From Parcubacteria group bacterium (GTDB taxonomy: Bacteria; Patescibacteriota; Minisyncoccia; SW-4-49-11): DNA of 64,000 bases. Under the pieces are notes generated by a model. The model saw only the letters and a list, made by a program, of their open reading frames with translations. It was not told the DNA's origin and did no database searches. The position numbers and the translations under genes are program-made. The stretch lies in contig CALRBF010000002.1 of NCBI GenBank assembly GCA_943354045.1, forward strand, positions 60,726 through 124,725, given 5' to 3'. Shown piece by piece: positions 7,627 through 47,637 of the stretch (position 1 is its first letter; each line of letters starts with the position of its first letter).

Positions 7627-7627
7627 T

Positions 7628-8353: not shown

Positions 8354-8357
8354 TACC

Positions 8358-8783
8358 TTATACTTGATCCAAATATTCTCCATATCCTTCACGCTCCATA
8401 TCTTCTTTTGGGATAAAGCGTAGAGATGCTGAGTTGAGACAATATCTCTTGCCTCCTTTATCTTTTGGACCATCATCGAATACATGCCCGAGATGAGAAT
8501 TAGCTCCTTTGGATCTTACCTCAATTCTTGTTTGGAATAATTTAGTATCTTTTTTAGTAATAATTACATCATCTTTAATTGGTTTCGTATAAGATGGCCA
8601 GCCAGTACCTGAATCATATTTATCCCGAGAAGAGAATAAAGGCTCTCCAGAGACAATATCTACATAAATACCATCTCTTTTATTATTATAATATTCATTC
8701 TCAAATGGAGCTTCCGTCCCATCCTCTTGCGTAACCGTATATTGTATAGGGGTTAATTTTGCTTTCAAATCATCTGATGACAT
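8358..8783 (-). CDS. msrB: Peptide-methionine (R)-S-oxide reductase MsrB
   Basis: SelR signature [38 protein letters not shown] with CxxC...CxxC zinc site. Confidence 0.9.
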
Positions 8784-21919: not shown

Positions 21920-23068
21920 ATGCACATTCACAAACTCATGGCCACTCAAAATGTTCTAACAAGACTGAAGTCCATCTCTGGGCTGTCACTCCGAAGCATC
22001 TTGATATTCTGTTTCTTTGGCTCCACCGTATTCATCACTATCTTAATGGTCTTCTTGATCAAAAGCGTAGGTGGTAATTTCCTTGAAGTACTAATAACTT
22101 TTCTGGTCACACCCATTGCATGGATAGCACTATTAGCACGTAGATTCATAGGGCTGGACCAGACCAATGGTTCACAAGGTGCTATTCTAGAATTTCTTGG
22201 GAAACAACCAGATCCCGCAAAATATGAGTTAAGACTAATACCCATACCCAGTGGTAAATTCAGAAGAGAACTCCCTCTGGATGGTTTTTGGGAAGGATTA
22301 TTAAGGCCGCGTGTCGTACAAGGATGGTATATATACATAAAAGGATTACATACAAGAGCCTGTTTAATTGATATTACTCAAAGGACAATAGAGTATACAA
22401 CCCCCAAAGATGGTTTGATTGATATACCAGAGGAAAGAGGTGGGGGATCTATTGCGATAAAGAAAGCTATAATACCATATTGGGTAACAAATCCGGTCAA
22501 GGCATTCTACAATGTTCTTGCATCAGAAAGTGATAAAGATCCCAATAAAGCTGGAGAACCTGTAAATGGGTATATATTTGAGTTAGAAAATTACATTAGG
22601 ATATCAATTGCGAAAGCAGTCTCGCTGAGTGACCTCGAATTAGATGAGTTATTAACGAGGGCTCATGCACTTGGTCCAGACATAACAAAAATATTAAGGG
22701 AAAAATTGGAAGAAAATGATATTGGAGTAGGTATTGGAACAGTAGACTCTCCTGATGCAACCCCCTCTGATAAATATCTTGATGATAGGGAACTAACTGC
22801 AAGTAGAAGAAAAGAGGAAGAAGCTAGACTAGTTGAATATGAGGCCCTACAAAAAAGGATATTCCTCTTGATGGGATTAGATGAACATGGTCAGAGAGAT
22901 CCAAATAGAGTCCCTGATAATGCAACGATGACTCTAGATCAAATTCTACAAGATAGATATGTGATGCAGATAGCAGAAAAAGCAGGTCCCATCTCAATTA
23001 ATTCCCTAGGAGGAAATTTTAATGACATTGTAAAAGGAATAATGACTAATATCCCGCCACAAACATAA
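21920..23068 (+). CDS. Hypothetical membrane-anchored protein (382 aa), higher-GC islet
   Basis: N-terminal TM helices then a soluble domain. GC about 42%. No family recognised. Confidence 0.45.
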   Translation: MHIHKLMATQNVLTRLKSISGLSLRSILIFCFFGSTVFITILMVFLIKSVGGNFLEVLITFLVTPIAWIALLARRFIGLDQTNGSQGAILEFLGKQPDPAKYELRLIPIPSGKFRRELPLDGFWEGLLRPRVVQGWYIYIKGLHTRACLIDITQRTIEYTTPKDGLIDIPEERGGGSIAIKKAIIPYWVTNPVKAFYNVLASESDKDPNKAGEPVNGYIFELENYIRISIAKAVSLSDLELDELLTRAHALGPDITKILREKLEENDIGVGIGTVDSPDATPSDKYLDDRELTASRRKEEEARLVEYEALQKRIFLLMGLDEHGQRDPNRVPDNATMTLDQILQDRYVMQIAEKAGPISINSLGGNFNDIVKGIMTNIPPQT

Positions 23069-23088
23069 TTACCTCAGGCCTAACAAAG

Positions 23089-23119
23089 GTCATTCTCAAC
23101 CAGCTCTCCCAAGAGCTGG
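23089..23119 (+). terminator. Intrinsic terminator
   Basis: accagctct-ccca-agagctggt followed by T8. Confidence 0.7.
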
Positions 23120-23159
23120 TCTTTTTTTTGTCTATATCTATTGACTTTTTAATCTAAAT

Positions 23160-23957
23160 ATGCTAATGTCTGAGAGACCCTCATTGGAGAAATCCATGTC
23201 TTTAGCAAGTGTTATCATTTCTGCTCTGATCATTTTCATCGTCCTCATGGCATTTTCTTTCTCAAAGAATCTACCAGCGAATATCAGAAATTCATCAGGT
23301 GGAGCTTCCACCCCTCCAAGCCCTTCTTCGGCACCATCCTCCTCCCCTGCTCCGGCAAGTGGTGGGAGTGGATGGCATATCCCAAGTTGGCTAGGACCTC
23401 TATTCTTGACCATAGCTGGACTATGGTTGATTCTAAAAGTCTTAGCCTTCAAGGGTGCTCCTGACAATTTGGAAGCGGTTCTTGCTGTTATCATAGCATT
23501 AGCTGGAGCAATTCTGCTCAAAGATGGGAAGAGATTTGCTGGATTCTTTCTTTCAGGCCTCATTATTGTACTGGTACTATTCCCAGGGATAATGACCTGG
23601 CTTCAAGGAGTTCGCCAATCTCAGATTAACCCCCCAGGGGAAATGGCTCCCATCGTTATCAATCGCGATGGTGAGTACGATCTCCCAGCACGCCCCCTCA
23701 AGGTATGCTTTACACGAACCGGAGATACAGCTAATCTCCTGGTGAATAAGGTTGATATCGCAGGAGTTATCTATGAGCAAAGTGAAGAAGGTTGTAAAGA
23801 TATTTCAGCAAAAGGGAAAGTATTTATATCCCTTTTATCAGGAAAACCCTACTCGGAACAAGTTAAGTCTCAGATTGGGATGACGGATGTGGATAATAAT
23901 TATGAGTATTACAAAAAAATAGGTTTTGGAGACTATCCCATAATAAAAGCTCGTTGA
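23160..23957 (+). CDS. Hypothetical membrane protein with Ser/Pro-rich linker (265 aa), highest-GC segment of window (~47%)
   Basis: TM-SGGASTPPSPSSAPSSSPAPASGG-TM-TM topology. The antisense ORF 23138-23563 was judged spurious. Confidence 0.45.
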   Translation: MLMSERPSLEKSMSLASVIISALIIFIVLMAFSFSKNLPANIRNSSGGASTPPSPSSAPSSSPAPASGGSGWHIPSWLGPLFLTIAGLWLILKVLAFKGAPDNLEAVLAVIIALAGAILLKDGKRFAGFFLSGLIIVLVLFPGIMTWLQGVRQSQINPPGEMAPIVINRDGEYDLPARPLKVCFTRTGDTANLLVNKVDIAGVIYEQSEEGCKDISAKGKVFISLLSGKPYSEQVKSQIGMTDVDNNYEYYKKIGFGDYPIIKAR

Positions 23958-23971
23958 GCTTTTACATACAG

Positions 23972-24008
23972 ACACCCTTTACGTGAGTATTGGGTGTTTT
24001 TCTTTATT
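23972..24008. terminator. Intrinsic terminator (acaccc-N14-gggtgt + T-run) between convergent genes
   Basis: Seen directly; a second small hairpin (agctc-gtt-gagct, tttt) overlaps the stop codon. Confidence 0.55.
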
Positions 24009-24017
24009 ATTAATATT

Positions 24018-24773
24018 TTATACTAAGGCTGAGATAATATATTGGGTTATTAGGAAAGCCCCCATAATTATCATAAGTCCCACAACTGCATTCCTAATTC
24101 CATCCAAGGCCTGACCTACTTCTCCTGGATTAGAACTTGTCATATATTTAAATCCTGACATAACTAGAATAGCCACAGTAATAGTTCCTAATATTCCTAA
24201 CAGAGCATTAATAATACCCGCTATAAGGTCTGGGATACTATTGAACTTAATAGGATTAGTGAATCCTACACTTTGTGGAGCTGATGCATCAGATGTGTTA
24301 CCCCCGGAACCATTTGGAACTGTAGCAGAACCATCAGGAGCTCCTCCTCCATTTGGAACTGTAGTAGATCCATCGGGTGCTGTAGCTACTCCAGGATTTC
24401 CTGGTGGTTTTTTACTAATGTCACATCTCATAGGGTTACCTGTACTACCCACACTACAAGTTCCTAATTGTCCTCCTGACTTACAGGCATCTCCTGATTT
24501 ATAACAATCCTCCCAACCATTTGCGGTAGTATTACAGTACAGGGTATCACCCCCTGTAGCTCCTCTTCTATCACAAAACCCATTTGCAGTAGATGTTTGT
24601 ACAGGCCCCCCTGGTGCTGTAGGGGTTTTTGACTGATAAGTACAGGTAGCTCCATTTGATTTACCAGAACAAGCCGTATTTTGTGCCGCTGTATTATCTA
24701 CGGTCTGAGCAAAGCTATTCTGAGGGATAATTATTCCTATACCTAATAAAAGTGAAAAGATAATATATTTCAT
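24018..24773 (-). CDS. Type IV secretion system pilin-like protein (VirB2/TrbC-like, PF18895 style) with Cys-rich N-terminal ectodomain
   Basis: Signal peptide. Eleven Cys in the mature N-terminal part, then a Gly/Pro-rich linker. C-terminal pilin module IPDLIAGIINALLGILGTITVAILVMSGFKYMTSSNPGEVGQ..AVVGLMIIMGAFLITQYI: hydrophobic helix, G.xYxTSxxNP, hydrophobic helix. Confidence 0.65.
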   Translation of the reverse strand: MKYIIFSLLLGIGIIIPQNSFAQTVDNTAAQNTACSGKSNGATCTYQSKTPTAPGGPVQTSTANGFCDRRGATGGDTLYCNTTANGWEDCYKSGDACKSGGQLGTCSVGSTGNPMRCDISKKPPGNPGVATAPDGSTTVPNGGGAPDGSATVPNGSGGNTSDASAPQSVGFTNPIKFNSIPDLIAGIINALLGILGTITVAILVMSGFKYMTSSNPGEVGQALDGIRNAVVGLMIIMGAFLITQYIISALV

Positions 24774-24774
24774 A

Positions 24775-25188
24775 CTAATTTACATTTAATGGGATATTAA
24801 TACTAGCGGTTTCATCTGGAGGGAATACAAATCCTAATACGGCATTGGATGCGACAAAGGCAAAGAATATAATAAGTAGACCTATGATTGCATTTACCAT
24901 TCTTTTTTGAGCTGATTCAGCCTGCTTCTCATCTCCTCCTGCGGTTGCATATTCAAATCCTGCATATAGGAATATAATAAATATCACAATTCCAATAAAT
25001 CCTAATATCCACCTGATAATAATCGATACTGTCTCTATGAGGCTTGGTCCCTCAGCTATTCCAGTATTAATTGGGATTGTCCCAGGATCAGGGAGAGTAG
25101 CATCAGGGGCTCTCTGAGCTAAGGAAATATTAGAGCCCAATAAAAATCCTCCCATTAATAAAGCTATTATAATCAATAAGACTCTCAT
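24775..25188 (-). CDS. T4SS pilin-like protein (short paralog)
   Basis: Signal peptide plus IIRWILGFIGIVIFIIFLYAGFEYATAGGDEKQAESAQKRMVNAIIGLLIIFFAFVASNAVLGFVF. Confidence 0.65.
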   Translation of the reverse strand: MRVLLIIIALLMGGFLLGSNISLAQRAPDATLPDPGTIPINTGIAEGPSLIETVSIIIRWILGFIGIVIFIIFLYAGFEYATAGGDEKQAESAQKRMVNAIIGLLIIFFAFVASNAVLGFVFPPDETASINIPLNVN

Positions 25189-25282
25189 ATCTATTTTACT
25201 ATTCTATATATTACAAGTATATCAAGTATTCTATTATCTGACAAGAATACTATATTATTTGAATATGTATTCTCTAAACAAT

Positions 25283-25305
25283 AAAAAGGGATATAATCCC
25301 TTTTT
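25283..25305. terminator. Perfect palindromic hairpin aaaaagggat-ata-atccctttttt inside the pilin gene array (bidirectional intrinsic terminator)
   Basis: 10-bp stem flanked by A5/T5+ runs. Sits in the 144-nt gap after the 25333-25716 pilin. Confidence 0.6.
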
Positions 25306-25332
25306 ATTGTTTCATAGTATCTATCAATTTGA

Positions 25333-25716
25333 TTAATTTCCTGGGAATACGAATGACAATATTGCATTTGAAGCTACAAAGGCAAAGAATATAATAATAA
25401 GTCCAATTACAGCGTTAATCATTCGAGACTGTGCAGTTTTTGCTTTTCCTTCATCTCCACCAGCTGTTGCATATTCAAATCCTGCAAATAAGAAAATAAT
25501 GAATATTACGATTCCGATAAATCCTAATGCCCATTGAATAACTACTTGTACTGTAGCCACAAGGTCAGTAGATTGATAAGTACCAGCTACTTGAGGTATT
25601 TCACCTATAACTCTAGTATCTTTTACGGGAGTTGCAGCTCCAGCTAAAGTAGGTGCTAATAATAATACTGGTAATAATACTCTTGTTACTATTGATTTTA
25701 TCTTGGAGGTATTCAT
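25333..25716 (-). CDS. T4SS pilin-like protein (short paralog; likely the major expressed copy given the downstream terminator)
   Basis: C-terminal module about 80% identical to 24775-25188; the N-terminal mature region is divergent. Start MNTSKIKSIVTRVLLPVLLLAPTLAGAA chosen at 25716 (ORF-track 25767 adds 17 implausible residues). Confidence 0.6.
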   Translation of the reverse strand: MNTSKIKSIVTRVLLPVLLLAPTLAGAATPVKDTRVIGEIPQVAGTYQSTDLVATVQVVIQWALGFIGIVIFIIFLFAGFEYATAGGDEGKAKTAQSRMINAVIGLIIIFFAFVASNAILSFVFPGN

Positions 25717-25815
25717 AAGAATATCTATAATTATTAAATAATATGTCCTATAAGTACATATTATCATATAATATATACTTATGCAAGTAATAGCATTGTG
25801 GATAAGTATATTATA

Positions 25816-26154
25816 TTATAAGCCAAAGACAAATCCCAAGACTGCATTAGATACCACAAAGGCCAATCCTACGATAAAAACCCCTATTACTGCTGCTGTA
25901 ATTCTACTTATAGCTTCTTCGGTTTTTTTAGGATCTCCTCCTGCTGTTGCATATTGAAATCCTGAAAAGAGTATGAGAATAAATAATATTACCCCTATTA
26001 ACCCTAGGCTCCATCTTACAATAGTAGATACAAAGGTAAATATATCCCCTTGTTCTGTCACCCCAGTACCAGTAGGAATACCTAAAACGGGTGGCACAGA
26101 TTCCTGAGCTTTTGCTGTTGCTATGATAAAATTAGCTATAAGTTTTTCTAACAT
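25816..26154 (-). CDS. T4SS pilin-like protein (short paralog)
   Basis: IVRWSLGLIGVILFILILFSGFQYATAGGDPKKTEEAISRITAAVIGVFIVGLAFVVSNAVLGFVF. Start at 26154 (MLEKLIANFIIATAKAQ) avoids a 77-nt overlap with the upstream gene. Confidence 0.6.
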   Translation of the reverse strand: MLEKLIANFIIATAKAQESVPPVLGIPTGTGVTEQGDIFTFVSTIVRWSLGLIGVILFILILFSGFQYATAGGDPKKTEEAISRITAAVIGVFIVGLAFVVSNAVLGFVFGL

Positions 26155-26164
26155 ATATACGATA

Positions 26165-26812
26165 TTAAGACCCTGCTGCGAGCAAACCACTTGTGACAAA
26201 ATTAGTGATAAGGAATGCGCCCATGATAATAAGTAATCCAATCACGGCATTGGTAATAGCTCCTGTAGCAGCGGCTGTTTGACTAGCATTTCCAGAGGAT
26301 ATCATATAGAGATACCCTTGTAAAACTATGATTATAAAAAATACTGTTCCTAAAATTCCTAGTATCCAGCGTATAATATTAGCCACATATCCAATAAGTG
26401 TTCCCCCCGTATTAAGTCCTGATCCAGCATTTTTGAATTGATTCAAACCCTGGGATAGTCCAGTTGATCCACCACTTGTAGATGTTTCAGTTGGAGAATT
26501 TGGTTTCGTTGGGGTTTGTTTAGTATCTGTTGCAGGCTGTAATGTATTGGCTTTAGGTGCACATACAATTTCTGTTGCTTGATTCTGAATACATGCTTGT
26601 CCAGAACCACACTTAATAGAAGCATCTCCTGTACAAATACCCTTACTATCTGCTTGATTTGTTAAACATTTTGTAGCACCATCTACTGTTACACATACTT
26701 TTCCCGAGGTACAATCTAGTCCAGATCCACAGGCTGCTAAAGCATTATAGGTATTCCCCATAAATCCTATTACAAACAGAATTACTAAACTTGTTGATAA
26801 AATACATTTCAT
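26165..26812 (-). CDS. T4SS pilin-like protein with Cys-rich N-terminal ectodomain
   Basis: Signal peptide. Fourteen Cys (CGSGLDCTSGKVCVTVDGATKC...). Thr/Pro linker. Pilin module IIRWILGILGTVFFIIIVLQGYLYMISSGNASQ...AVIGLLIIMGAFLITNFV. Confidence 0.65.
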   Translation of the reverse strand: MKCILSTSLVILFVIGFMGNTYNALAACGSGLDCTSGKVCVTVDGATKCLTNQADSKGICTGDASIKCGSGQACIQNQATEIVCAPKANTLQPATDTKQTPTKPNSPTETSTSGGSTGLSQGLNQFKNAGSGLNTGGTLIGYVANIIRWILGILGTVFFIIIVLQGYLYMISSGNASQTAAATGAITNAVIGLLIIMGAFLITNFVTSGLLAAGS

Positions 26813-26842
26813 AATATCTATATTTAATTATTTTTAATTATA

Positions 26843-27949
26843 TCATCTTTTTCTTAATTTCCAAATAAATAATCCTAGTCCCCCAGCAAGAAATAGTATT
26901 CCTCCTATCAAAATAGCTATATTTCCGAATGTTTTAGATTTTGCTGGCTGTGTAGTTGTATTCGTATCAGGGGTAGGAGTATTGGTGGAGAGTAACACTG
27001 TTCCCTGCTCTTTTTTTGATAAATTATAAGTGGAGATTTGATTATTTTGATTAATCAATAGTTCATTTCCAGATTGTCCAATCGAATATATATCAGTAAC
27101 TATTGGATTTAATGATATATTTGATTGCTCCTGCCCTTGCAAATTATATTGTATCAAATTACCATTTGTAGTTAATACAGCTATCGTATCATTATTCAGT
27201 AATACAGCTTTCCTGTTACTCATATTAATACTACTTCCTACTTGATTACTACTCCAATCGAAAACTTTTATCTGACTATTATTATATTCCAAAAAATAAT
27301 TTAATTTTGGACTGGTTGAAATTTGATAATTACTACTTTTTTGGTATACAAAGTTTTTCTTATTACCAACAAGATACCCATCAACTAATGGGATTATTTG
27401 ATGGTCTTCATTTGCTATAATTTGTTTATTAATATCCACATTAGATGGTATATTAGAGTATAGAATATTAAATTTAGACAGATCATTGGTGGGAGCAACT
27501 GTGATATCTTTATTATTAAATACATATATAATTTCATTATCAGAATACCAGCCAACTAAATTAGTTTTATCATTTAGTTGTATTTTATTTTTTGTATTAA
27601 AATCATATACCCACCATTGATTATCGGGAGATTTTCTTGAACTATCAAAAAATGGTGCTTGATATTTTGGAAATGATATATTGGGAGGATAAAGTAACAT
27701 TTTAGATTGTTCAGGAGAAATTGATACTAAGTTAGTAGCAGAAGGTATTAAATCAAATATCTCTGACTTATCACCAGTAATAACATTTTGTTTCACAATA
27801 GCCCCTGCATATTGATCAAAATATAAAATTTCATTATTTACAGCAAAACTTGGATATAGGAAACTTGAGTATATACTGGTATCCGCATATACTGGAGAAA
27901 TAGAATAGAAAGATGCTATTAGTAAAAATAGACTTAAGATTTTATTCAT
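26843..27949 (-). CDS. Secreted N/Q/S-rich beta-propeller-like surface protein with C-terminal Thr/Pro stalk, TM anchor and KLRKR tail
   Basis: Signal peptide MNKILSLFLLIASFYSISPVYA (start 27949 preferred over 28042). Repeated aromatic-rich beta-strand segments. C-terminus TPTPDTNTTTQPAKSKTFGNIAILIGGILFLAGGLGLFIWKLRKR resembles a tripartite sorting signal but lacks LPXTG. Confidence 0.5.
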   Translation of the reverse strand: MNKILSLFLLIASFYSISPVYADTSIYSSFLYPSFAVNNEILYFDQYAGAIVKQNVITGDKSEIFDLIPSATNLVSISPEQSKMLLYPPNISFPKYQAPFFDSSRKSPDNQWWVYDFNTKNKIQLNDKTNLVGWYSDNEIIYVFNNKDITVAPTNDLSKFNILYSNIPSNVDINKQIIANEDHQIIPLVDGYLVGNKKNFVYQKSSNYQISTSPKLNYFLEYNNSQIKVFDWSSNQVGSSINMSNRKAVLLNNDTIAVLTTNGNLIQYNLQGQEQSNISLNPIVTDIYSIGQSGNELLINQNNQISTYNLSKKEQGTVLLSTNTPTPDTNTTTQPAKSKTFGNIAILIGGILFLAGGLGLFIWKLRKR

Positions 27950-27953
27950 ATTG

Positions 27954-29357
27954 TTATTTACATGTTTTAAATTTTTGATAGTTACTCCACACTCCATCAC
28001 AATAATTTCCTCCACAAGCTGATGAACCTGAACATGCCCCACAATAATCTCCTGCTACACAATCAGAACAAGCTCTGGACGAAAAATCTGAATATCCATT
28101 ACATTGACTAGAACATTTATTATATCGTTTTAAATGTTTCCCCATACATACAAGGGCATCTCTTCGATTTGTTCTACTTCCACTACATCCCAGCTCATTC
28201 CAGCTCGTTTGTAAAAATTGACCTGCTCCAGCTGCTCCAGATCCATTTTCATTTGGACAAGCATTAGGATTATTAAATGCTGCAGGACATTCTCTTTGCA
28301 TAATTCCAGCTAATAGTTCAGAAGGAACACCAGTCTGTAAACTAGCATTATTTAGATCAGCCTTAACCGAATCATTTAAACTTGCACAACTTATAGTTGA
28401 GGAGTTACTCCCTCCATTACCGAGCACACCTGATCCACCTCCATTTCCCCCATTATCATTAAAAGTGCTTGCAGTGTCACATTTTACCTCGAATACTTTA
28501 CCGGGTTGAAAAGTAAGTACCGCTGAGAAATTTTGTTCTTGGAAGCCAAGTCCTACTAATAAGAAACTGAATAGGAGAAAACTTGCCATTACGAGCAATA
28601 ATCCAATCACTGCATTGGTAATAATGCCATACCCCGTACTCACTCCCCCGGGATTACCAGCTGAAGTAAGTATATATACTCCACCAATTACAATACTTAA
28701 TACTGCTAGTGAAGCTAGTAGGCCCAAAGCAAAATTAAAGATGTCTCGAATTAAGATAAATATATCACAAATAGTACAATCTCTACTGGTACCACATTTA
28801 ACAAGTCCTGTTTCTGAATTGGTTGAGCTTCCGTTAGTTGTTCCAGCACCAGCATCACCTTCTCCAGGAATATTAGAACCAGTTGCACCCCCAGAGGTCC
28901 CAGCTTGGCTGCCTCCACCAGCATTAGATCCAGATGGTGAATTAGTGGTACCACCAATAGTTGCATTTTCTTTTATACATTTAAAATCACTACATTTAAG
29001 ACCTGCTACACATTCATTTCCATTCCCAGAACAAGATTGCCCCTCTGTTTTATTGCCTCTTGGACTGGAACAAACCTGATTAATACAGGCTAATCCATTT
29101 TGACAAGTATCACCTGAGCAGGATGATCCTAAGCTAGTACGACAAGTTAATCCTAAACCTGGATTATTTTTATCTTTCACTTGGCATTTTCCATTTAAAC
29201 GAGAAATCCCATTTTGAAATGTACAATTTTGCTCTAATGCTGTTGCCCCAGCACTACAGGATCCATCAGCTGTCTGAGCATAAGTAGATTTAATACTAAA
29301 AAATGAAGCTATTAGGAAGATTATACTAAAGACTATACCAAACTTTATATATTTCAT
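27954..29357 (-). CDS. Composite protein: Cys-rich ectodomain + T4SS pilin module + lytic transglycosylase (SLT/VirB1-like) domain + Cys-rich tail
   Basis: Signal peptide. Cys-rich EGF-like N-terminal region. Pilin module ICDIFILIRDIFNFALGLLASLAVLSIVIGGVYILTSAGNPGG...AVIGLLLVMASFLLFSFLL. Then ELLAGIMQRECPAAF...GAAGAGQFLQTSW, which resembles SLT-family E..S / GLMQ / AxGxMQ motifs. The C-terminal 80 aa hold about 14 Cys. Confidence 0.55.
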   Translation of the reverse strand: MKYIKFGIVFSIIFLIASFFSIKSTYAQTADGSCSAGATALEQNCTFQNGISRLNGKCQVKDKNNPGLGLTCRTSLGSSCSGDTCQNGLACINQVCSSPRGNKTEGQSCSGNGNECVAGLKCSDFKCIKENATIGGTTNSPSGSNAGGGSQAGTSGGATGSNIPGEGDAGAGTTNGSSTNSETGLVKCGTSRDCTICDIFILIRDIFNFALGLLASLAVLSIVIGGVYILTSAGNPGGVSTGYGIITNAVIGLLLVMASFLLFSFLLVGLGFQEQNFSAVLTFQPGKVFEVKCDTASTFNDNGGNGGGSGVLGNGGSNSSTISCASLNDSVKADLNNASLQTGVPSELLAGIMQRECPAAFNNPNACPNENGSGAAGAGQFLQTSWNELGCSGSRTNRRDALVCMGKHLKRYNKCSSQCNGYSDFSSRACSDCVAGDYCGACSGSSACGGNYCDGVWSNYQKFKTCK

Positions 29358-30700
29358 TTTTTTACATTATCAGCTAATGTTTGTATTTCTGATTCAGCCT
29401 GAGTGATAGCCTTACTATAGTCCAGTAGTCCTGAATTAACTGCATTAATAGCCTCAATAAATATTTTATCTACTGAATTATTATCTGGTTGTCTCCAAGT
29501 TTTGGCTTGTAAAATTTGTTTTACAAATACGCCATAATCACTATCTTGAGATTGAGTTTCTACCAAATCTCTTCTAGCTGTTGGGCGCTTGGTTTTCAAG
29601 AAATACTCTTGAGCATTTTCTTTTTCAGTAGCTGATTTGAGGAATGCAAAAGATTCTTTAGGATATTTGGATTGACCGCTGACTCCATATCCCCAATAAT
29701 TTGCATAGTTAGCAAGTCCAGAATCTAGTGATACTTGAGGAAGAGGTGCTACCGCAAAATTAAGTCTTGGAGCTTTTGCTTTAATTGCTTCTATTTGATA
29801 AGAATATCCAAATATCATAGCTACTTCCCTCTCATAAAAAGCATCTATTGAATTATTGAGAGTTGAATTCCATGTATATACTGATTTTCGAGGATTAGCA
29901 AAATCAGTATAATAGGTTAAAGCTAATGTTCCTGGAGAGATATTTTGTCCATTGATATTTTTTCCTTGTGAGAATGTAATTCTACTAGAATCTTTTGGAT
30001 CAGTAAATTGAGCACCTGTTTGTAACATTAATGACATTAATATATCAGGGGAACGATTTATATTATCCCCAGTACCAAGTGCAACCCCTGCCTGTTTAAT
30101 ATTACCAAATTGATCAATTTTAGTTAATTCTGGGACAATTTTTTGTAATTCTTCCCAAGTTGCTGGTGGATTTGCAATTCCGGCATCATTAAATGCATCT
30201 TTATTATATAATAATGCTAAGGTATCGGTATATAGGGGAAATCCATATATTTTACCCCCGTCAATAAAGTCTTGATTGACCACATCTACAAAACGATCTT
30301 GATAATCTTTAAGCGTCATAATTTCTTCTGGCATTGAAGCTAATTTATTCTTATGCTTCCCGAGCCAAGTATGTTCTATTGCAAATATATCTGGTCCTCG
30401 TCCCTCAGCTAAAGCATTCACTAATTCTGTTTCATAATCTTGTGGCTTGAATTTACGATATTCTATACTTACATTAGGATATGTTTTACGAAAATCACTT
30501 CCTAATTTTGTCATTGTCTCACTTTCATCCCATACGCCCCATACTACCAGATTAGCTTTTTGTACTTGTTTTCTACCTCCAGCTTGGAACCCAAGAGCAT
30601 TCCCTAACATCAAAATAACAATGGCCAATATAGCCACTCCAGCAATAATAATTAATTTACGATTTTTGGTAAATGAATCAAGAGAATTATTCCCTGCCAT
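29354..30700 (-). CDS. ABC-type extracellular solute-binding protein (family 1, sugar-type), membrane-anchored, with no cognate permease/ATPase genes nearby
   Basis: N-terminal TM anchor then an SBP_bac_1-like fold (GPDIFAIEHTWLG, GFPLYTDTLALLYNKDAF, ATWEEL). The stop overlaps the start of the pilin-SLT gene by 4 nt. Confidence 0.7.
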   Translation of the reverse strand: MAGNNSLDSFTKNRKLIIIAGVAILAIVILMLGNALGFQAGGRKQVQKANLVVWGVWDESETMTKLGSDFRKTYPNVSIEYRKFKPQDYETELVNALAEGRGPDIFAIEHTWLGKHKNKLASMPEEIMTLKDYQDRFVDVVNQDFIDGGKIYGFPLYTDTLALLYNKDAFNDAGIANPPATWEELQKIVPELTKIDQFGNIKQAGVALGTGDNINRSPDILMSLMLQTGAQFTDPKDSSRITFSQGKNINGQNISPGTLALTYYTDFANPRKSVYTWNSTLNNSIDAFYEREVAMIFGYSYQIEAIKAKAPRLNFAVAPLPQVSLDSGLANYANYWGYGVSGQSKYPKESFAFLKSATEKENAQEYFLKTKRPTARRDLVETQSQDSDYGVFVKQILQAKTWRQPDNNSVDKIFIEAINAVNSGLLDYSKAITQAESEIQTLADNVKK

Positions 30701-30702
30701 AT

Positions 30703-31245
30703 TTATGATTTTTTAAATATATACCCATAATGATATTTACCTGCATCAATTTTATGATCAATTTCAAAACCATTATTTTGTATCAGAGAAACTAATTCTC
30801 TCTCTGGAATTCTTGATGATTTGAGAGGTCCTATTGGGCTTGCTATATCCCATTCTATTATGACCAATTTCCCTTTTTCTTTTAATATTTTATAAGCTTC
30901 TTTGAGCAAATGTTTTTTATCATTTACTTGAAAAAGGATATTATGTATCATAACTCTATCTACTGATTCTTTTGGTAAAGTAGAACCACTATCAGTCTCG
31001 AGATTAGTCAAAATCAATTCAATATTGGTAATACCTTGAATTTTGTATTTACTTCTGAGAGACTGATGTGCTGATTCCATTACATCAATTGCAAATACTT
31101 TCCCTGTTGGCTGAATATATTGAGCAATAGCAATAGAAAAGTCTCCAGCCCCCGATCCAAAATCAGCAATTTTCATTCCAATTTCTAAGTCAAATTGCTT
31201 TACTATTTCACGCGGTGATAGAAATCGAGTAGTGGTTTCTAACAT
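30703..31245 (-). CDS. Class I SAM-dependent methyltransferase
   Basis: Motif I IADFGSGAGDFSIAIAQ; acidic motif II FAIDVMES; motif III VDRVMIHNILFQV. First gene of the pilin operon. Confidence 0.8.
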   Translation of the reverse strand: MLETTTRFLSPREIVKQFDLEIGMKIADFGSGAGDFSIAIAQYIQPTGKVFAIDVMESAHQSLRSKYKIQGITNIELILTNLETDSGSTLPKESVDRVMIHNILFQVNDKKHLLKEAYKILKEKGKLVIIEWDIASPIGPLKSSRIPERELVSLIQNNGFEIDHKIDAGKYHYGYIFKKS

Positions 31246-31261
31246 AATGAGATTTTATTTT

Positions 31262-31302
31262 ATACCTATATCAAGTATATAGGTATTCCTTTAAATCGTC
31301 AA
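31262..31302 (-). promoter_or_regulatory. Minus-strand promoter (TTGACG-17-TATACT) overlapped by a perfect 10-bp inverted repeat ATACCTATAT-N5-ATATAGGTAT (candidate operator) upstream of the methyltransferase-pilin operon
   Basis: -35 = revcomp of 31297-31302; -10 = revcomp of 31274-31279; palindrome 31262-31286 spans the -10 and TSS; start codon at 31245. Confidence 0.45.
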
Positions 31303-31374
31303 CTATCTGTATGGGTTCAAGGATATTATCTCTCTTGGGGGGGATAGACTTCAAGTTCATATTTTATCCACCCC

Positions 31375-31430
31375 GTCTCCCGCCTAAACAAAGTATAGGA
31401 GGGAGACACCCCTCAAGAGGGGAATTTTTT
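31375..31430 (+). repeat. GC-rich double hairpin (GTCTCCC-N19-GGGAGAC, then CCCCT-caag-AGGGG + AATTTTTT) oriented as a plus-strand terminator in a minus-strand gene region
   Basis: The first hairpin loop ccgcctaaacaaagtataggaggga is nearly identical to 18198-18225. Member of the same repeat family. Confidence 0.5.
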
Positions 31431-31469
31431 GTACAGTACATTTTTATATATTCCCTTTCACTAATACTA

Positions 31470-33962
31470 TTATTCTATTCCTTCTTCTGGTTCATCTTCG
31501 GTAGTAACAGCGATTGAAGCAATAGTATCATCTTTATTAAGTCTCATAATTTTTACCCCTTGAGTATCCCGAGATAATGTCGGAATATCTTTTTGAATAT
31601 TAAGCTTAATAATATTCCCTCCAAGAGAAATAGCAATCAATTCTTTGCTATCTGGGGTAACTACTTGAGCCCCCATAACAAGACCAGTTTTAGTGGTGAT
31701 TTTAGAAACCTTTACTCCTCCCCCACCTCGTCGCTGTACTTTATAATGACTTAATTTACTTTTTTTACCATATCCTTGAGCGGTTGCAATCACAAGCCAT
31801 CCTTGCTCATCTCCAGAACGAATTGTTTGCATAGATAATACCGTATCATCAGGCTTTAAGGTGATTGCTTTTACTCCAGAAGCTGTTCTTCCCATTGGCC
31901 TTAATTCTTCTTGAGAGAATCGTATTGCTTTTCCTTGTGCGGTAAACAAAATTACATCATCATCGGTATGAGTAATAGTTGCTTGTATCAGAGTATCTTT
32001 ATCTTTGAGATTAATAGCAATAATTCCACCTTTTCGCACATTGGCATATACTGACATTGCACTCTTTTTGATAACACCCAATCTGGTGACAATAGAAACA
32101 AAACTATCTGATGCATCTTCAGTTGGTAGAATTGACTGGATTTGCTCATCTTTGGTAAGTTCCAAGAAATTAACTATAGATTGTCCTTTGGCAATACGAG
32201 ACCCTTGTGGGATTTCATAAGCCTTTAATTTCAATACTCTTCCATTATTAGTAAAGAATAATAATTTCGCATGAGTAATAGTATGAAGGAAAATTGATAC
32301 AGAGTCATCTTCCCGTGTCTTAACTCCAGAAATTCCCACTCCACCTCGTCTTTGAGAACGATATTCTTTAGGGTCTACTCGCTTAATATATCCATCTTTG
32401 GTCAAAATAATAATAGTATCTTCATTGGGAATAAAATCTGTCTCTCTAAAATCTCCCAATTCCTCTTGGAATACTCGAGTTTTTCGCTCATCGCCATATT
32501 GCTCGGATACTTGCTTCAAATCATCTTTGATAATCTGATAAATTCTCTCTTCTGATCCAAGAATTGACTCTAATTCTTTAATAAGAATTAATAATTCTGC
32601 TAATTCATCAAGAATTTTTTGTCGCTCTAATCCAGCAAGAGTTTGTAATCTCATATCGAGAATAGCCTGCACTTGTAAGGTGCTAAATTCAAAGCGCTTA
32701 ATCAAATTAACCTTGGCAAGTTCTTTACTCTCAGATCCTCGAATAATAGTAATAACTTCATCAATAAAGTCAAGAGCCTTTTTGAGTCCTTCCAAAATAT
32801 GTGCTCGGTCTTTAGCCTGTTGTAATTCGAATTCAGTTTTTCGGGTTACTACTTCTTTACGATGAATAATATAATATTGTAAAGCTTGTTTTAATGACAA
32901 AGTTTTTGGTTCAATACCATCACAAAGAGCCAACATATTCACATGATAGGTTTTTTGTAAATCTGTTAATTTATATAATTTATTGAGTACCTTTTGTGGA
33001 TAAGCATCAGATTTGAGTTCAATCACCACTCTTACTCCATCTCTATCAGATTCATCTCGAATATCTTTGATCCCATCAAGTTTTTTATCTCTGACCATAT
33101 TAGCCATTTTCTCAATCAAGGTAGATTTATTGGTCTGATATGTCATTTCAGATACAATAATATCAAAAGCATTTCCTTTTTTGGTTCTCTCTACAATTTC
33201 AGCTTTAGCTCGAGTTACCAGAGGCCCTCGCCCAGTAGCATATACTTGCCGAATATTTTCAATATTATATAATTCACCTCCAGTTGGGAAATCTGGTCCC
33301 TTGACAAAATGCAATAATTCTTCAATAGTAATTTCTGGATTTTCTATCAAAGCAATAGTTGCTCCTACAATTTCTTTCAAATTATGGGGAGGAATATTAG
33401 TTGCCATACCTACCGCAATTCCTGTTCCTCCATTAATAAGAAGATTAGGGACTCTAGCTGGTAATACGGTTGGTTCTTCTAAACTTCCATCATAATTAGG
33501 GATAAAATTAACGGTTTTTTTATCAATATCAACCAGCATTTCCCTCGCAATTTTATCCATTTTAGCCTCAGTATATCGCATAGCCGCAGCTGAGTCACCA
33601 TCCATAGATCCAAAGTTTCCCTGTCCTTTTACCAAGGTATATCTCAAAGAGAAATCTTGTGCCATACGCACCAAAGAGTCATACACAGCAGTATCTCCAT
33701 GGGGATGGTATTTTCCCAGCACTTCTCCAACTATGGTAGCAGATTTACGGAATTTTGCTTCTGGCCGTAGACCAAGTTCATGCATAGCATAGAGAATTCT
33801 TCTGTGAACGGGTTTTAATCCATCTCTTACATCAGGAAGAGCTCTATCTACAATGACACTCATTGAATAATCAATATAGGCCCGCTCCATCTCAGCTACA
33901 ATATCAGTCAGCTCAATATTTCCTATATTCTCAATTGTTGAAATTTTGGTATCGTCTGCCAT
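31470..33962 (-). CDS. gyrA: DNA gyrase subunit A
   Basis: [14 protein letters not shown], active-site region [10 protein letters not shown], GyrA-box QRRGGKG-like and C-terminal beta-pinwheel repeats. Confidence 0.95.
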
Positions 33963-43284: not shown

Positions 43285-46200
43285 TTATTTGTTAAGTACT
43301 TGTCGCACAGCTTCTTTAATTCCTATCATTTTACTTGGCTGTAAGAATGTAGAAAGTGGCTGTAATCTAGTTCCACCATTTGGCAGTCTAATTTGATTCC
43401 AGAATCCAGATGTTGGAATATTCCTATTACCACTAAATTCCGCCCAGTTAAACTTTGATACAAATTCTTCTGGAGATTTGATATCCTTAAATCTTAGATA
43501 TTCTTTGAATAATTGAATATTCTGATTATTAATATCTGGATTATTTACAATTGCATCATAAAGCCACTGTTTACCTGCATCAGTTTGTACATAAGTATCT
43601 AATACCTGCTTACCTAAATTAGAGTCATAAGGCAAGTTCCCTAATTCATTAGCGATATATCTCTGTACTACACCTAAAGAGTTTGTTCCTTTAGTTAATT
43701 CCACCATATCTGGAGCATCTTCAAATCTAGCTAAAATAGTCTGATTCAAAACTTTTCTTAACTCATCAGAGTTTATGTTATTAACTACTTCAGACATTTG
43801 CTCTGGACTTAAGTTTGCAAATCCATTAGATAAAAATGTAGATCCTTCACCTGTATTGATTATAGAGTTATAGATTACTTCTCTTCCATAATCATCTGTA
43901 AAATATGATTGTATAATTTCTTTAGCTTGTAAATCTGTAAGATTTTGCTTACCTAATATTTCAGATAAATCTCTAGTAAATTCACTAGTTGCAACTGGTG
44001 GAACTTCTGGAGATGGAGTTGCTACTGGAGCTTCGGCTGCTGGTGGAACTATAGGCTCTGATCCTAAAGATTCAGTGCCTACTGGTGATGATGCTGGTGT
44101 TTCGGAATATACTGGATCAATAGTAGGAGCTTCTGCTGGAGATGGAGCAACATATTCTGCTGGTTGAAATGCCTCAAGATGATCTATGTTAAAATGACTA
44201 ATTCCCTCTAATTGACCTGGACCTAGATATCTTGAAACTTCATATAATTGCCCTTTTGAAAGGCTGGCCATTTCATTAGCATTATCTATTCCCCATTGAG
44301 CTAATAATCCTCTTCCCCCTTCGGTACCTTGCGCTAATTGAAACATCGTATTCTGACCTACTCCCGACTGCACATAATTTTCTAAGGCATGCTGTATTTG
44401 GTCTGGACTAGCATTTGGCCCTAATTGTTTAGCTATTTCTCCCCATAAAGTCTCACCTTTACTTAATTGAGATATATCTTGTAATTGTTCTGGGGATAGA
44501 TTTTGAGTAGCTGCTTTGGTAGCTTCAGTTGCAGCACCCGTACCTTCTGGAGTTGGAGAAATTGGTTCCACTTCAGGTTTTGAGGTAGCAGCAACTTGCT
44601 CTGGATTAAATACTCCTCCTGGTCGCATCATATCAACTGCTAATGAGGTCATAAGGCCTCCACCCACTGCTGTTCCTACTACATTGGCAATAGTTCTATT
44701 TCTTTGTTGCTTTTGTAATTCTGTAATACGTTTTTCTGATAAAGTAGTTAATAGTCTACTTGTATATTGTTGATTTTGTTCTGGAGAAGAGAATACAAAT
44801 TTCTCAGAAGCTCCTTGTATGGCGACTTCATTAGTAATATCTTCTGAGCTTATAATCTCATCTTTAGCTTTCAGGGTATTAGTTGAACTTGATTCTTGTT
44901 TTACTTGTTTTGCAATACTTTCACGCTGTACTCTACTACCCAACTCAGTTAATATAGCCTCATAAGCTGTTTGCTGTGATTCATTAGTAAATTTACCACC
45001 ATTAAGGCGATAATAGGCCTCAAGTGTACTAAGCTTTGTACTTAAATCAGCATCATTTGCATTATTAATATAATCATCTTTCAATGAATCTTCTACTAAT
45101 TTTGGTATAACTGCTTTAAATTTAATACCAAATCTGTTTATCTCTCCATCCTCCATCAGACCTACTAAAGTATTCCTTGAGCTAACTCCTGACATAACAC
45201 TTCCCAGAGATCTTCTTGTCATTTCTAAAGCTCCTGATACTGGTATCCCTGCTCCAGTCGAAGATAATAAAGCACCTGCAGCAAAAAGACCTATATTAGC
45301 TAACATCCATCGAGTTTTATTTTTAGTTGCCCAACCTAAGAACTTTTCTTTGGCACCATTAAACCTCTTCTCCCATTTACCTTGTAGCTCTTGGGACTGA
45401 TCTATCCTACTATCTCTCAAATTCTTAACCTCTTGTGTAAAGACTCTATGTATTTCTGACTCTAAACCTTGAGCTGCCATAATACCAATAACTTCCTCAA
45501 CTGTTTGATTATATTCTCCTCTTAGTCTTTCTAATTCTAATTTTGCACTCTCATCATTACGATTTCTATTATAAAATTCTTCAGCTCGGGCATAAGCTGT
45601 TCTCAAATCTGTGATATTAATTTTATATGATGAGTCTACATTTTTTTCAAAATCAGGTATTGATTTATATCCCACCGCCTCACTACCTGACAATGTAGAT
45701 AATGGGATGTTGGTATCATCTACAATAACTCCCTTTATAAATTCATTTTTACTAAGTGTACTGACAATAAAATCTGGAGTTTGTGGATTAAGTCCTGGCA
45801 ATACATAGCCTGTATAATGTAAGTCAGAATCTACTGCATCTAAATTAATATCTGTAAGTATATGAGCTGGTCGAGCTTTACCTATCAAATTTGCGACACT
45901 ATAAGTTCGATTTAATTCTATATTTTTACTATGATGTTTAATGGTAATAATATTTCCATTTTCATCAAATCCATATCCTTGTGCTTCTAGATAATCTTTT
46001 GTATTTTTTGCTTCTGGATGTGATAAATCTATATCTCTTTGTTGCGGAAGAGCAAAGATTTCTCCTCCCTTAATATGCGCAAGTTTATTCTGAGCTTCCC
46101 AAGCAGCTTGCTCAAATGCACGATATCTCTCATTTGTTGCCAGATCTCGAGTATGGAAAGGATGCTCTTGTGCAAATTGTTGATATGTAGCAATAGCTTG

Positions 46201-47637
46201 AAGAGATTCTTGTTTTAATTGTTCAATTTCTGCACTCTTATCAAGGGTTTCTAATTCTCCTTCACCGGGAGATATTTCACCCTCTATTCTAGCTAATGCA
46301 CCTCCCGTTTCTCGTTCAGCAATACTATTAGTTAAATCACCTAATTCTTGCGCTAATTCTTCTGCTCCAGGCAATCCATCAAGTAGTGTTTCTGTCTCTG
46401 GATCTAATCCGGAAGGATTTGTTTCAGTTGTTGACACGCTTTCATCTTGCCTAAGATCCTGTTCAGGTGGGACTTCAAGAGTTTTTCCTTCACCCCGAAT
46501 ATCAAACCCATCATCTGATCCCTGCTCATTCAATATTTCAGTAGAGACAGAATGTTCCTCCACAACTACTCCAGGGGTCAATTCTCCACTAGTACCACCA
46601 TATGCTGATAATCCATAGAGTGCTCTTGTTGCATTAATAAATTCTAAATATTCTCCAGATATATCTGCATTTTTTTGCTGTGCTTTTATTAATTCATAAT
46701 TAGGTAAATCTGTAAGCTTTGGCATTATACCAGTAGCTTGTATACCCCTTACCAAATTATCTCTTTCTAAATCATCAGCTATTAATAACCAGTCTGATAA
46801 ATAATTCCTAGCCCTTGTATAATCATCTGTAGTTGCTAATTTAGTGTGCTCTAGATATGGATAAGCTTGTATTCTAGCTTGTATTTCAGTGTCTATTACT
46901 TCTGTCTGTTCAGTTTGTTCTGCGCTTAGAGTTTCAAGACCAATTTGTTCTCTCCAAACAGCTCTATTCTCTGGAGTTAATTCACCCCACTGTAATTCCT
47001 CTGGGATATTTTTATCATTTGCTTCAATTGCTAATCTTAATTTATATTCTAACGCACCTTTATCATCCCCCTCAGGAATACCAAGTAGTCTACCAAAAGT
47101 TGGGATAATATATGTAGAAGGATCTCTACTACTTTCCTTATCTCCCTTTCCTAGAGTAAGTTCATTCTTAAATTCATTATTTGTTAATCTAATATGACCA
47201 GGTTTTTGTTTGGGATCAGACTCCCCACCATTTTCATTACGAGGTTTTTGCCATGTTATTTCATGGGGTGCAGATTCTCCTAACTCATTACCTTCTTCTG
47301 GGTCAGGAGATTCTACAGGAGGAACATATTCTGATAGTCCATACCATGTTCTTGCCTCACCTATATCATATGTAGCATCTCCCTCAAGGGCTTTAGGTAC
47401 TACACCCAATTGAAGAATTTGATCTTTTAGTGTCCCATATTCTGGATCACCTGATGTAATCTGAAGTTGCTTGGCTAGTGTTTTTAAAGCGGTTTTACGC
47501 TCTCTAATATCTAGTATAACTTGATACTCAAATGGAGGAACATTTCCTTGTAAATCAACATAATCTTTTGAAGTTGATATATCGCTCTCACTTCCTTCAT
47601 AAGGTTGTTCGAGATTAGATCCATACGACTTTCCCAT
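43285..47637 (-). CDS. Giant hypothetical protein (1450 aa) with two central TM segments and a Pro/Ala-rich low-complexity block
   Basis: Uninterrupted ORF. TM candidates WMLANIGLFAAGALLSSTGAGIPVSGAL and IANVVGTAVGGGLMTSLAVDMM. PAAEAPVATPSPEVPPVATS linker. No N-terminal signal peptide and no recognised catalytic motif. Confidence 0.55.
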   Translation of the reverse strand: MGKSYGSNLEQPYEGSESDISTSKDYVDLQGNVPPFEYQVILDIRERKTALKTLAKQLQITSGDPEYGTLKDQILQLGVVPKALEGDATYDIGEARTWYGLSEYVPPVESPDPEEGNELGESAPHEITWQKPRNENGGESDPKQKPGHIRLTNNEFKNELTLGKGDKESSRDPSTYIIPTFGRLLGIPEGDDKGALEYKLRLAIEANDKNIPEELQWGELTPENRAVWREQIGLETLSAEQTEQTEVIDTEIQARIQAYPYLEHTKLATTDDYTRARNYLSDWLLIADDLERDNLVRGIQATGIMPKLTDLPNYELIKAQQKNADISGEYLEFINATRALYGLSAYGGTSGELTPGVVVEEHSVSTEILNEQGSDDGFDIRGEGKTLEVPPEQDLRQDESVSTTETNPSGLDPETETLLDGLPGAEELAQELGDLTNSIAERETGGALARIEGEISPGEGELETLDKSAEIEQLKQESLQAIATYQQFAQEHPFHTRDLATNERYRAFEQAAWEAQNKLAHIKGGEIFALPQQRDIDLSHPEAKNTKDYLEAQGYGFDENGNIITIKHHSKNIELNRTYSVANLIGKARPAHILTDINLDAVDSDLHYTGYVLPGLNPQTPDFIVSTLSKNEFIKGVIVDDTNIPLSTLSGSEAVGYKSIPDFEKNVDSSYKINITDLRTAYARAEEFYNRNRNDESAKLELERLRGEYNQTVEEVIGIMAAQGLESEIHRVFTQEVKNLRDSRIDQSQELQGKWEKRFNGAKEKFLGWATKNKTRWMLANIGLFAAGALLSSTGAGIPVSGALEMTRRSLGSVMSGVSSRNTLVGLMEDGEINRFGIKFKAVIPKLVEDSLKDDYINNANDADLSTKLSTLEAYYRLNGGKFTNESQQTAYEAILTELGSRVQRESIAKQVKQESSSTNTLKAKDEIISSEDITNEVAIQGASEKFVFSSPEQNQQYTSRLLTTLSEKRITELQKQQRNRTIANVVGTAVGGGLMTSLAVDMMRPGGVFNPEQVAATSKPEVEPISPTPEGTGAATEATKAATQNLSPEQLQDISQLSKGETLWGEIAKQLGPNASPDQIQHALENYVQSGVGQNTMFQLAQGTEGGRGLLAQWGIDNANEMASLSKGQLYEVSRYLGPGQLEGISHFNIDHLEAFQPAEYVAPSPAEAPTIDPVYSETPASSPVGTESLGSEPIVPPAAEAPVATPSPEVPPVATSEFTRDLSEILGKQNLTDLQAKEIIQSYFTDDYGREVIYNSIINTGEGSTFLSNGFANLSPEQMSEVVNNINSDELRKVLNQTILARFEDAPDMVELTKGTNSLGVVQRYIANELGNLPYDSNLGKQVLDTYVQTDAGKQWLYDAIVNNPDINNQNIQLFKEYLRFKDIKSPEEFVSKFNWAEFSGNRNIPTSGFWNQIRLPNGGTRLQPLSTFLQPSKMIGIKEAVRQVLNK

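Follow-up and report, generated by a model that had tools for sequence, protein, structure and literature searches.

Patescibacteria carry VirB2 arrays, in which 2-11 pilin genes stand together and a non-pilin gene sometimes intervenes, and most VirB2-carrying genomes of the group lack VirB1 (Quinonero-Coronel et al. 2025, PMC12102498). The type IV secretion system (T4SS) and its VirB2-like pilin arrays are essential in the sole genetically tractable Patescibacteria species (Wang et al. 2023, PMC10633639). What pilins do in these bacteria, which depend on other cells, is an open question for the field, and a single gene described here bears on it. The gene lies in a 64-kb stretch of Paceibacteria/Parcubacteria DNA (Candidate Phyla Radiation (CPR)/Patescibacteria; assembly GCA_943354045.1, contig CALRBF010000002.1, positions 60,726 to 124,725). 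This whole stretch is called the window, and all coordinates are window positions; the closest genomes are freshwater metagenome-assembled genomes (MAGs). An open reading frame (ORF) on the minus strand with an ATG start (27954..29357, 467 aa) is the first of a six-gene pilin array that matches the described Patescibacteria VirB2 arrays, and its product joins a VirB2-like pilin module to a C-terminal lysozyme-like domain, the head. This fusion protein is probably a Sec-exported, membrane-tethered, extracellular peptidoglycan glycosidase of predicted GH23 type that uses a VirB2-like pilin anchor, forms part of the pilin array and supplies the wall-cutting activity of a T4SS or pilus. The parts of the gene and its neighbours are listed in Table 1.

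The existence of a single fused polypeptide, the first claim of the original prediction, is secure. A protein identical to the 467-aa product (P0001) is encoded on contigs from four separate samples, always with the same neighbours, so the fusion is no assembly chimera or artefact. Protein and gene order are also kept in 13 loci of other Paceibacteria/Parcubacteria genomes, which excludes a chance ORF. Both ends of the protein are Cys-dense, as had been noted from the sequence: of 30 Cys in total, 12 fall in residues 34-127 and 14 in residues 324-466, and the motifs CTIC, CSDC and CGAC are all found. The Cys-rich N-terminal domain was modelled as beta-hairpins (predicted local distance difference test (pLDDT) 77-92 for residues 90-130), occurs in some homologues only and matched nothing in a family-profile scan. 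Two stem homologues of 569-572 aa (P0017 and P0018), which belong to some type-B fusions described below, replace the Cys-rich module with an N-terminal extension of ~280 residues that is not Cys-rich. The N-terminal ectodomain is therefore modular too.

The pilin two-helix module, originally placed at about residues 200-265, was recovered in two ways. Pfam PF18895 (T4SS_pilin) matches residues 202-266 with 26.0 bits (E 9.9e-6, profile positions 8-71 of 71), and AlphaFold2 builds a helical hairpin from residues 194-231 and 236-269 (pLDDT ~80-86), with the linkers disordered in the full-length model. Hydropathy peaks at about residues 195-235 and 238-274 coincide with these helices. Precomputed annotation lists the PF18895 match of the fusion protein as weak; the threshold is exceeded by its relatives P0058 at 28.4 bits and P0060 at 30.5 bits. 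The module and the surrounding stem are nearly invariant over 32 homologues. The two-hydrophobic-helix hairpin follows the signal peptide at a distance of ~155 residues. Since a signal peptide is followed by two membrane helices, both ends of the protein would lie outside the membrane, and the density of Cys on both sides of the hairpin fits this extracellular topology.

The head was analysed through its model and through A2, an alignment of 13 diverse members of its type (type A). The C-terminal domain was modelled with a pLDDT of 86, and the top Foldseek matches of the model are all GH23-type. The modelled fold is alpha-helical and lysozyme-like, with a substrate groove; the head scored 14.6 against MltF (131/154 residues, 2.5 Å), 12.7 against Slt, 12.5 against g-type lysozyme, 12.4 against MltC, 12.0 against MltE and 11.7 against Slt70. 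Invariant in A2 are E356, Q380, F381, D400, Y438, G440, C442, Y452 and C453. E356 stands at the C-terminal end of helix 346-356 (residues 33-43 of the model fragment), the position at which the motif-I helix carries its catalytic Glu. A profile search with A2 returned goose-type lysozyme as the best solved relative (3gxk, E 0.003), and phiKZ gp144 and Slt35/MltB matched more weakly. Against goose-type lysozyme, the profile sets MQRE over SRES, which contains the catalytic Glu, and GAMQF over GLMQV. The two features by which the proposed SLT-like domain was to be judged, a lysozyme-like fold and an alignable catalytic Glu, are thus both found.

The motif register had to be revised. Two strings, ELLAGIMQRECPAAF (from residue 347) and GAAGAGQFLQTSW (from residue 374), had been likened to the catalytic-groove motifs of the SLT family. 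Both strings are present, with GIMQRE now assigned to the helix that ends in the predicted catalytic Glu, the position of the E-S motif. GLMQ has its equivalent in GAGQF (377-381; G[AP]MQF in relatives), and YCGAC (438-442) occupies the AYNAG position.

Type-A heads appear, from their sequences, to be a very divergent, disulfide-rich GH23-like family missed by current profile libraries: no Pfam or NCBIfam model recognises the domain. The domain is also rare: HMMER, run exhaustively over 1.84 billion cluster representatives, recovered 10 proteins. Five of these (P0015, P0058-P0060 and P0062) also match PF18895, three of them at or above threshold; P0063-P0066 carry the type-A domain with no PF18895 match, and P0061 looks like a fragment. 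Homologue searches with the C-terminal fragment alone (no match) and with the stem alone (two fragments only) were uninformative, probably owing to the word index. The family is a candidate new enzyme family. In one type-A pilin-lysozyme fusion, P0060 (L019 3553-4932), an extra N-terminal region gives a sub-threshold hint of a GDSL/SGNH esterase (19 bits, cut-off 32.9). If real, an O-acetyl-peptidoglycan esterase beside a transglycosylase would be a functionally sensible pairing.

The same stem (GLVKCGxSRDCTICD ... GFQxxNFSA ... KCDxxSTFN) carries five types of head among 56 homologues. Type A (n=7; MQRE ... GAGQF), the fusion gene's own, is lysozyme-like by fold and profile. Type B (n=33; YEG ... 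AYGRYQ) has two phage lambda lysozyme entries, 3d3d and 1am7, as its sole PDB matches, and several type-B homologues are labelled 'muramidase (phage lysozyme)' by the Joint Genome Institute (JGI). Type C (n=4; AMAESGGN ... YGLWQIN) passes the thresholds of SLT_3 (67 bits) and SLT (33 bits), type D (n=7; IDTENADG ... CGILQLN) reaches SLT at threshold (22-25 bits), and type E (n=5; IDEGEGCNP) matches SLT weakly (15 bits).

Head types do not follow genome relatedness. Locus L005 is all but identical to the window in housekeeping proteins (GyrA 99.8%, S12/S7 100%) and carries a type-B head; L008 and L006, each with a GyrA 98.3% identical to that of the window, carry types E and A. Nucleotide comparison of the window with L005 (blastn) shows 93-96% identity that ends at 28435, in the hinge near codon 308, and restarts at 26989, near codon 320 of the downstream gene. 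L008 shares these breakpoints (28435/28430 and 26989/27005). Because homology stops and resumes at these positions, the exchanged unit comprises the head and the greater part of the next gene's ectodomain. The locus pairs a conserved N-terminal part with variable C-terminal domains exchanged along with a downstream gene, as in polymorphic systems. Orphan head or partner cassettes of the kind known from contact-dependent inhibition (CDI) and Rhs systems were sought elsewhere in the window, and none was found.

The downstream gene co-occurs with the head type. A family of 361-393-aa proteins follows type-A heads in the window and in L006, L007, L009, L018, L019/L020 and L025. Of these, L018, L019/L020 and L025 are distant loci in which both the neighbouring genes and the pilin subfamilies differ; the proteins downstream of their fusions match the 368-aa partner of the window with BLASTP E values of 2e-15 (L018, fusion P0058), 2e-22 (L019/L020, fusion P0060) and 3e-15 (L025, fusion P0015). 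That the type-A pairing is kept across distant lineages argues for a functional pair. The beta-propeller assignment of the 368-aa partner is putative, as it comes from weak PQQ_2/PD40-type matches only. All eight non-A loci with a callable downstream gene have instead a protein of ~228 aa that shares only stalk and anchor with the 368-aa family. Head type arranges these 228-aa partners into groups: B and C form one (63-80% identity), D another (56-87%), and E stands apart. The groups do not follow the genomes, for the partner in L005 has 66% identity to its counterpart in L010 (GyrA 89%) and 47% to the one in L008 (GyrA 98%). One locus, L022, departs from the arrangement. There two pilins follow the head gene, and a 382-aa protein beyond them matches the partner marginally (15.8 bits, tiny database).

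The fusion gene sits in a conserved genomic setting. The order gatB, a metallo-beta-lactamase (MBL)-fold gene, gyrA, a methyltransferase gene, a solute-binding protein (SBP) gene, the fusion gene, the 368-aa gene, five PF18895 pilin genes, two opposite-strand ORFs, rpsL, rpsG and fusA is conserved in 13 loci. A link to VirB4 comes from the relative P0059, which combines a weak, sub-threshold pilin match with a head 47% identical to the type-A head of the fusion protein. A VirB4-type ATPase (P-loop_TraG 101 bits, AAA_10, TraC_F_IV) is encoded three genes upstream of P0059, and two pilin genes come after it. The description 'VirB1-like' suits the head by fold and, in this relative, by genomic context; the sequence itself falls short of every Pfam SLT threshold.

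The proposed mechanism runs as follows. Paceibacteria (CPR/Patescibacteria) cells have one membrane. A Sec signal peptide would export the N-terminus, and the VirB2-like two-helix hairpin would insert in the membrane with both ends outside. The Cys-rich N-terminal domain and the C-terminal head would both fold outside the cell with disulfides, and long flexible linkers would give the head its reach. The head, of the GH23 (SLT/goose-lysozyme) fold and with E356 as the presumed acid catalyst, would cut the backbone between N-acetylmuramic acid and N-acetylglucosamine (MurNAc-GlcNAc). The first member of the pilin array would in this way bring a VirB1-like wall-cutting activity that is otherwise apparently absent from these type IV secretion or pilus systems, and would place it at the membrane assembly site or on the filament itself. 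Wall lysis might thereby be coupled to pilin insertion, as the original prediction suggested. Because head and partner ectodomain are exchanged as one cassette between close strains, we consider the wall of a host or partner cell a likelier substrate than the cell's own wall, and the downstream protein a functional partner of the head.

Several observations weigh against this proposal. The head reaches the threshold of no Pfam SLT model (PF01464, PF13406, PF18896), with a match to SLT_2 only, at 13.8 bits for a cut-off of 24.3, and the SLT matches of its relatives are likewise sub-threshold (5 of 13 members). A comparison of type-A heads with SLT_3-type heads by hhalign found no relationship (probability 0.1), so the head types are not claimed as close homologues, each being lysozyme-like on separate evidence. 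Position 383 is Q in the fusion protein and D in many relatives. The PF18895 score lies just below the gathering score of 26.6 bits, and the ~170 extra N-terminal and ~200 C-terminal residues may prevent the pilin from polymerising. A search of the 64-kb window for VirB4, VirB6 and other T4SS genes found none, which weighs on the T4SS link in this genome. Finally, the co-variation of head and partner could stem from physical linkage alone, and type-B and type-C loci have very similar partners (63-70% identity), which speaks against strict head-partner specificity.

These points leave room for other readings. The likeliest of these would have the head open the cell's own wall for assembly of the array or T4SS, as a housekeeping substitute for VirB1 that the hairpin directs to its site; head replacement would then be neutral hitch-hiking in a recombination hot spot. 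The place of P0059 within a VirB4 cluster agrees with this, as does the absence of VirB1 from most VirB2-carrying Patescibacteria (PMC12102498). All five head types are lysozyme-like, so function is conserved, and the whole array is hypervariable, with neighbouring pilins 59-95% identical to those of L005 and flanking housekeeping genes 98-100%. Nonetheless, it is not obvious why an enzyme aimed at the cell's own wall should need five non-orthologous heads among strains with GyrA 98-99.8% identical, or a changing partner matched to its head. Given that the head is repeatedly replaced by other lysozyme-like domains and that the partner varies with it, we find a role directed at the host more plausible than pure housekeeping, and regard a purely self-directed role as possible, if on the unlikely side.

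Somewhat more doubtful is a polymorphic effector-immunity cassette, in which the stem would serve as delivery scaffold, the head as an antibacterial muramidase against host or competitors, and the partner as a cognate inhibitor that shields the producer's wall. The cassette consists of exactly the head and the partner ectodomain, with shared breakpoints; partners group by head type and not by genome relatedness; and type A and the 368-aa family stay paired in distant lineages with different neighbours and pilin subfamilies. Set against this are the near-identical partners of types B and C, the lack of orphan cassettes in the window, and L022, where the head gene is succeeded by two pilins and then by the 382-aa protein, whose similarity is marginal at best. 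Nor is any lysozyme inhibitor known to be a beta-propeller. A broader conjecture, to which we give a similarly modest chance, is that in epibiotic CPR bacteria a scaffold of VirB2-type pilin presents wall-cutting 'warheads' that vary between strains: the pilus or its membrane base would bring the enzyme to the host wall, and the head would recombine together with a cognate membrane-anchored partner or immunity protein. If true, this would be a polymorphic effector system on a T4SS pilin, locked in an arms race with the wall chemistry or the lysozyme inhibitors of hosts.

It is improbable that the hairpin serves only as a generic membrane anchor of two helices, in a protein that would be an ordinary membrane-bound autolysin with no tie to a pilus or T4SS. 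The sub-threshold PF18895 score, the lack of VirB4 within 64 kb and the large domains on both ends, which weigh against polymerisation, would all suit such an anchor. Yet the gene stands in tandem with five clear PF18895 genes (31-43 bits), P0058 and P0060 score above the PF18895 threshold, P0059 lies in a VirB4 cluster, and a stem nearly invariant over 32 homologues exceeds the needs of a simple anchor. Least probable of all is a catalytically inactive head that binds peptidoglycan or glycan in an adhesin on a pilin scaffold: Q383 where many relatives have D, the great divergence from SLT models and a Cys-rich N-terminal domain that could be a binding module too are outweighed by a catalytic Glu that is invariant and correctly placed at a helix end, the single residue that lytic transglycosylases require. 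A membrane-tethered, wall-cutting member of the pilin array thus remains our preferred reading.

Table 1. Features of the fusion gene and its neighbours in the window
Feature	Position	Strand	Remarks
Whole coding sequence	27954..29357	minus	467 aa + stop: signal peptide, Cys-rich domain, linker, pilin hairpin, stalk, linker, lysozyme-like head
Signal peptide, residues 1-27	29277..29357	minus	MKYIKFGIVFSIIFLIASFFSIKSTYA, then Q after the predicted cleavage site; hydropathy peak residues 1-27; model helix 6-25
Cys-rich N-terminal ectodomain, residues 28-128	28974..29276	minus	12 Cys; two C..G..C..GL.C....C units
G/S/T/N-rich low-complexity linker, residues 129-183	28809..28973	minus	pLDDT <50 for 133-194; length varies in alignment A1
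VirB2-like T4SS_pilin module, residues 184-270	28548..28808	minus	GLVKCGxSRDCTICD motif + two hydrophobic helices
Juxtamembrane stalk, residues 271-300	28458..28547	minus	GFQEQNFSAVLTFQPGKVFEVKCDTASTFN; includes Cys293; columns nearly invariant in A1
Gly/Asn/Ser-rich hinge, residues 301-322	28392..28457	minus	holds 5' recombination breakpoint of head cassette, ~nt 28435
Type-A GH23-type lysozyme-like/SLT-like catalytic head (predicted), residues 323-467	27957..28391	minus	14 Cys
Codon of E356, predicted catalytic glutamate	28290..28292	minus	invariant in A2; aligned to SRES Glu of g-type lysozyme
Replaceable cassette	26990..28434	minus	head + ~320 codons of downstream gene; no nucleotide homology to L005, L008
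Downstream partner gene, 368 aa	26843..27949	minus	signal peptide, beta-propeller-like ectodomain, T/P-rich stalk, C-terminal transmembrane anchor ending WKLRKR
SBP gene (SBP_bac_1, 110 bits)	29354..30700	minus	stop codon overlaps fusion-gene start (ATGA); syntenic in 13/13 loci
Five further T4SS_pilin genes	26165-26812, 25816-26154, 25333-25767, 24775-25188, 24018-24773	minus	PF18895 at 31-43 bits

The overlap of the fusion gene with the SBP gene is real (4 nt, ATGA), as originally described; the SBP gene had been called downstream and lies upstream in the direction of transcription, because both genes are on the minus strand. Its product has an N-terminal hydrophobic segment, a putative transmembrane segment, and is translationally coupled to the fusion gene through the ATGA. 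Neither an ABC permease nor an ATPase gene was noticed next to it, and a role in the uptake of wall-derived sugars would be pure speculation.

Two of the array's pilins, of 215 aa (26165-26812) and 251 aa (24018-24773), have N-terminal extensions. That of the 215-aa pilin is a Cys-rich module (C.SG..C..G..C) like the N-terminal domain of the fusion protein, with weak DX/Dickkopf_N-type matches only. The array forms a hypervariable island relative to L005, L006 and L008: the pilin paralogues are 59-95% identical to those of L005, the two opposite-strand ORFs (21920-23957) barely align to it, and the flanking GyrA, S12, S7 and EF-G are 98.7-100% identical. A prophage or plasmid origin was rejected, the flanks being housekeeping genes (gyrA, gatB, rpsL, rpsG, fusA) with conserved synteny. 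A promoter scan gave 46 sites for 39 expected, which is not above chance, and Rfam had no match in 23000-32000.

Other observations concern the surroundings. The gyrA-methyltransferase spacer holds a 96-nt element (31360-31455) with terminator-like hairpins (31397-31422) and no Rfam match. It is 90% identical to L005 13928-14022, where it lies between two pilin genes in the opposite orientation, and the L005 gyrA-methyltransferase spacer lacks it; it may be a small mobile or repeat element. A 1450-aa ORF on the minus strand (43285-47637) has no Pfam match at E <= 1e-5. In L022 (GCA_030837625.1, JAUPKF010000002.1), a VirB4 cluster contains a second pilin fusion (7538-8632, 364 aa) with a Cys-rich C-terminal domain. 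An M15/LAS peptidase motif (H..G.A.D ... H.H) was suspected in this protein and in the tail behind the type-A head of P0063, and was dropped when Pfam and PDB sequence searches came back empty.

A pilin paralogue with its own lysozyme-like head is a candidate explanation for the VirB1 gap and suggests that the array functions in breaching walls. The exchange of head and partner as a cassette between near-identical strains suggests host-range or arms-race dynamics, which can be tested in Lake Mendota time-series MAGs and by simple biochemistry. Full-text literature searches brought up no account of pilin-lysozyme fusions, the type-A head family or head/partner cassette exchange, and no mention of PF18896.

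Among described systems, the closest is the array SEML1_0014-0019 of Southlakia epibionticum, which belongs to the same Pfam family (PF18895) and the same phylum (PMC10633639, PMC12102498). Tandem, divergent pilin paralogues interrupted by a non-pilin gene are common to S. epibionticum, other Patescibacteria and the window, and the array may lie away from virB4. In S. epibionticum, however, the lysozyme-like protein SEML1_0006 is encoded by a separate gene, whereas the enzyme is here joined covalently to the C-terminus of the pilin module; the pilins described so far in Patescibacteria are also short proteins. With the GH23 enzymes (the family-1 lytic transglycosylases MltF, Slt70, MltC and MltE, and goose-type lysozymes), the type-A head shares the Glu at a helix end and a G-x-M-Q-like second motif. 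It differs from them in its 11-18% identity, its 14 Cys, the replacement of AYNAG by YCGxC, and the rarity of the family. The Pfam architecture T4SS_pilin + SLT_3 (PF18895 + PF18896/PF01464) is already auto-labelled in type-C homologues such as P0050; the type-A head, in contrast, escapes every Pfam and NCBIfam model.

Membrane tethering is a trait that the fusion protein would share with PrgK and TraG, which differ in having a simple N-terminal transmembrane segment, plus CHAP or LytM domains. As VirB1-type hydrolases of monoderms, PrgK of pCF10 and TraG of pIP501 associate a lysozyme-like/SLT domain with a T4SS (PMC12102498, PMC11323569); the fusion protein departs from them in a mid-protein, VirB2-like hairpin as anchor and in a head that lies below the SLT Pfam threshold and is exchangeable between strains. 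The X-T4SS effectors of Xanthomonas (PMC6536674) and the Tse3-Tsi3 pair of a type VI secretion system (T6SS) (PMC3792639) likewise place a secretion-linked muramidase beside an adjacent co-varying gene. They differ in that the fusion head sits covalently on a pilin-type membrane hairpin and is not a soluble translocated effector, and in that immunity by the partner is putative. VirB2-like pilin arrays of Patescibacteria, T4SS-associated wall hydrolases and GH23 enzymes are thus already known, and some homologues carry automatic labels (PF18895+PF18896, 'muramidase'). New are the five lysozyme-like heads on one conserved pilin stem, their replacement as cassettes between near-identical strains, and the pairing of the type-A head with a beta-propeller-like partner in distant genomes.

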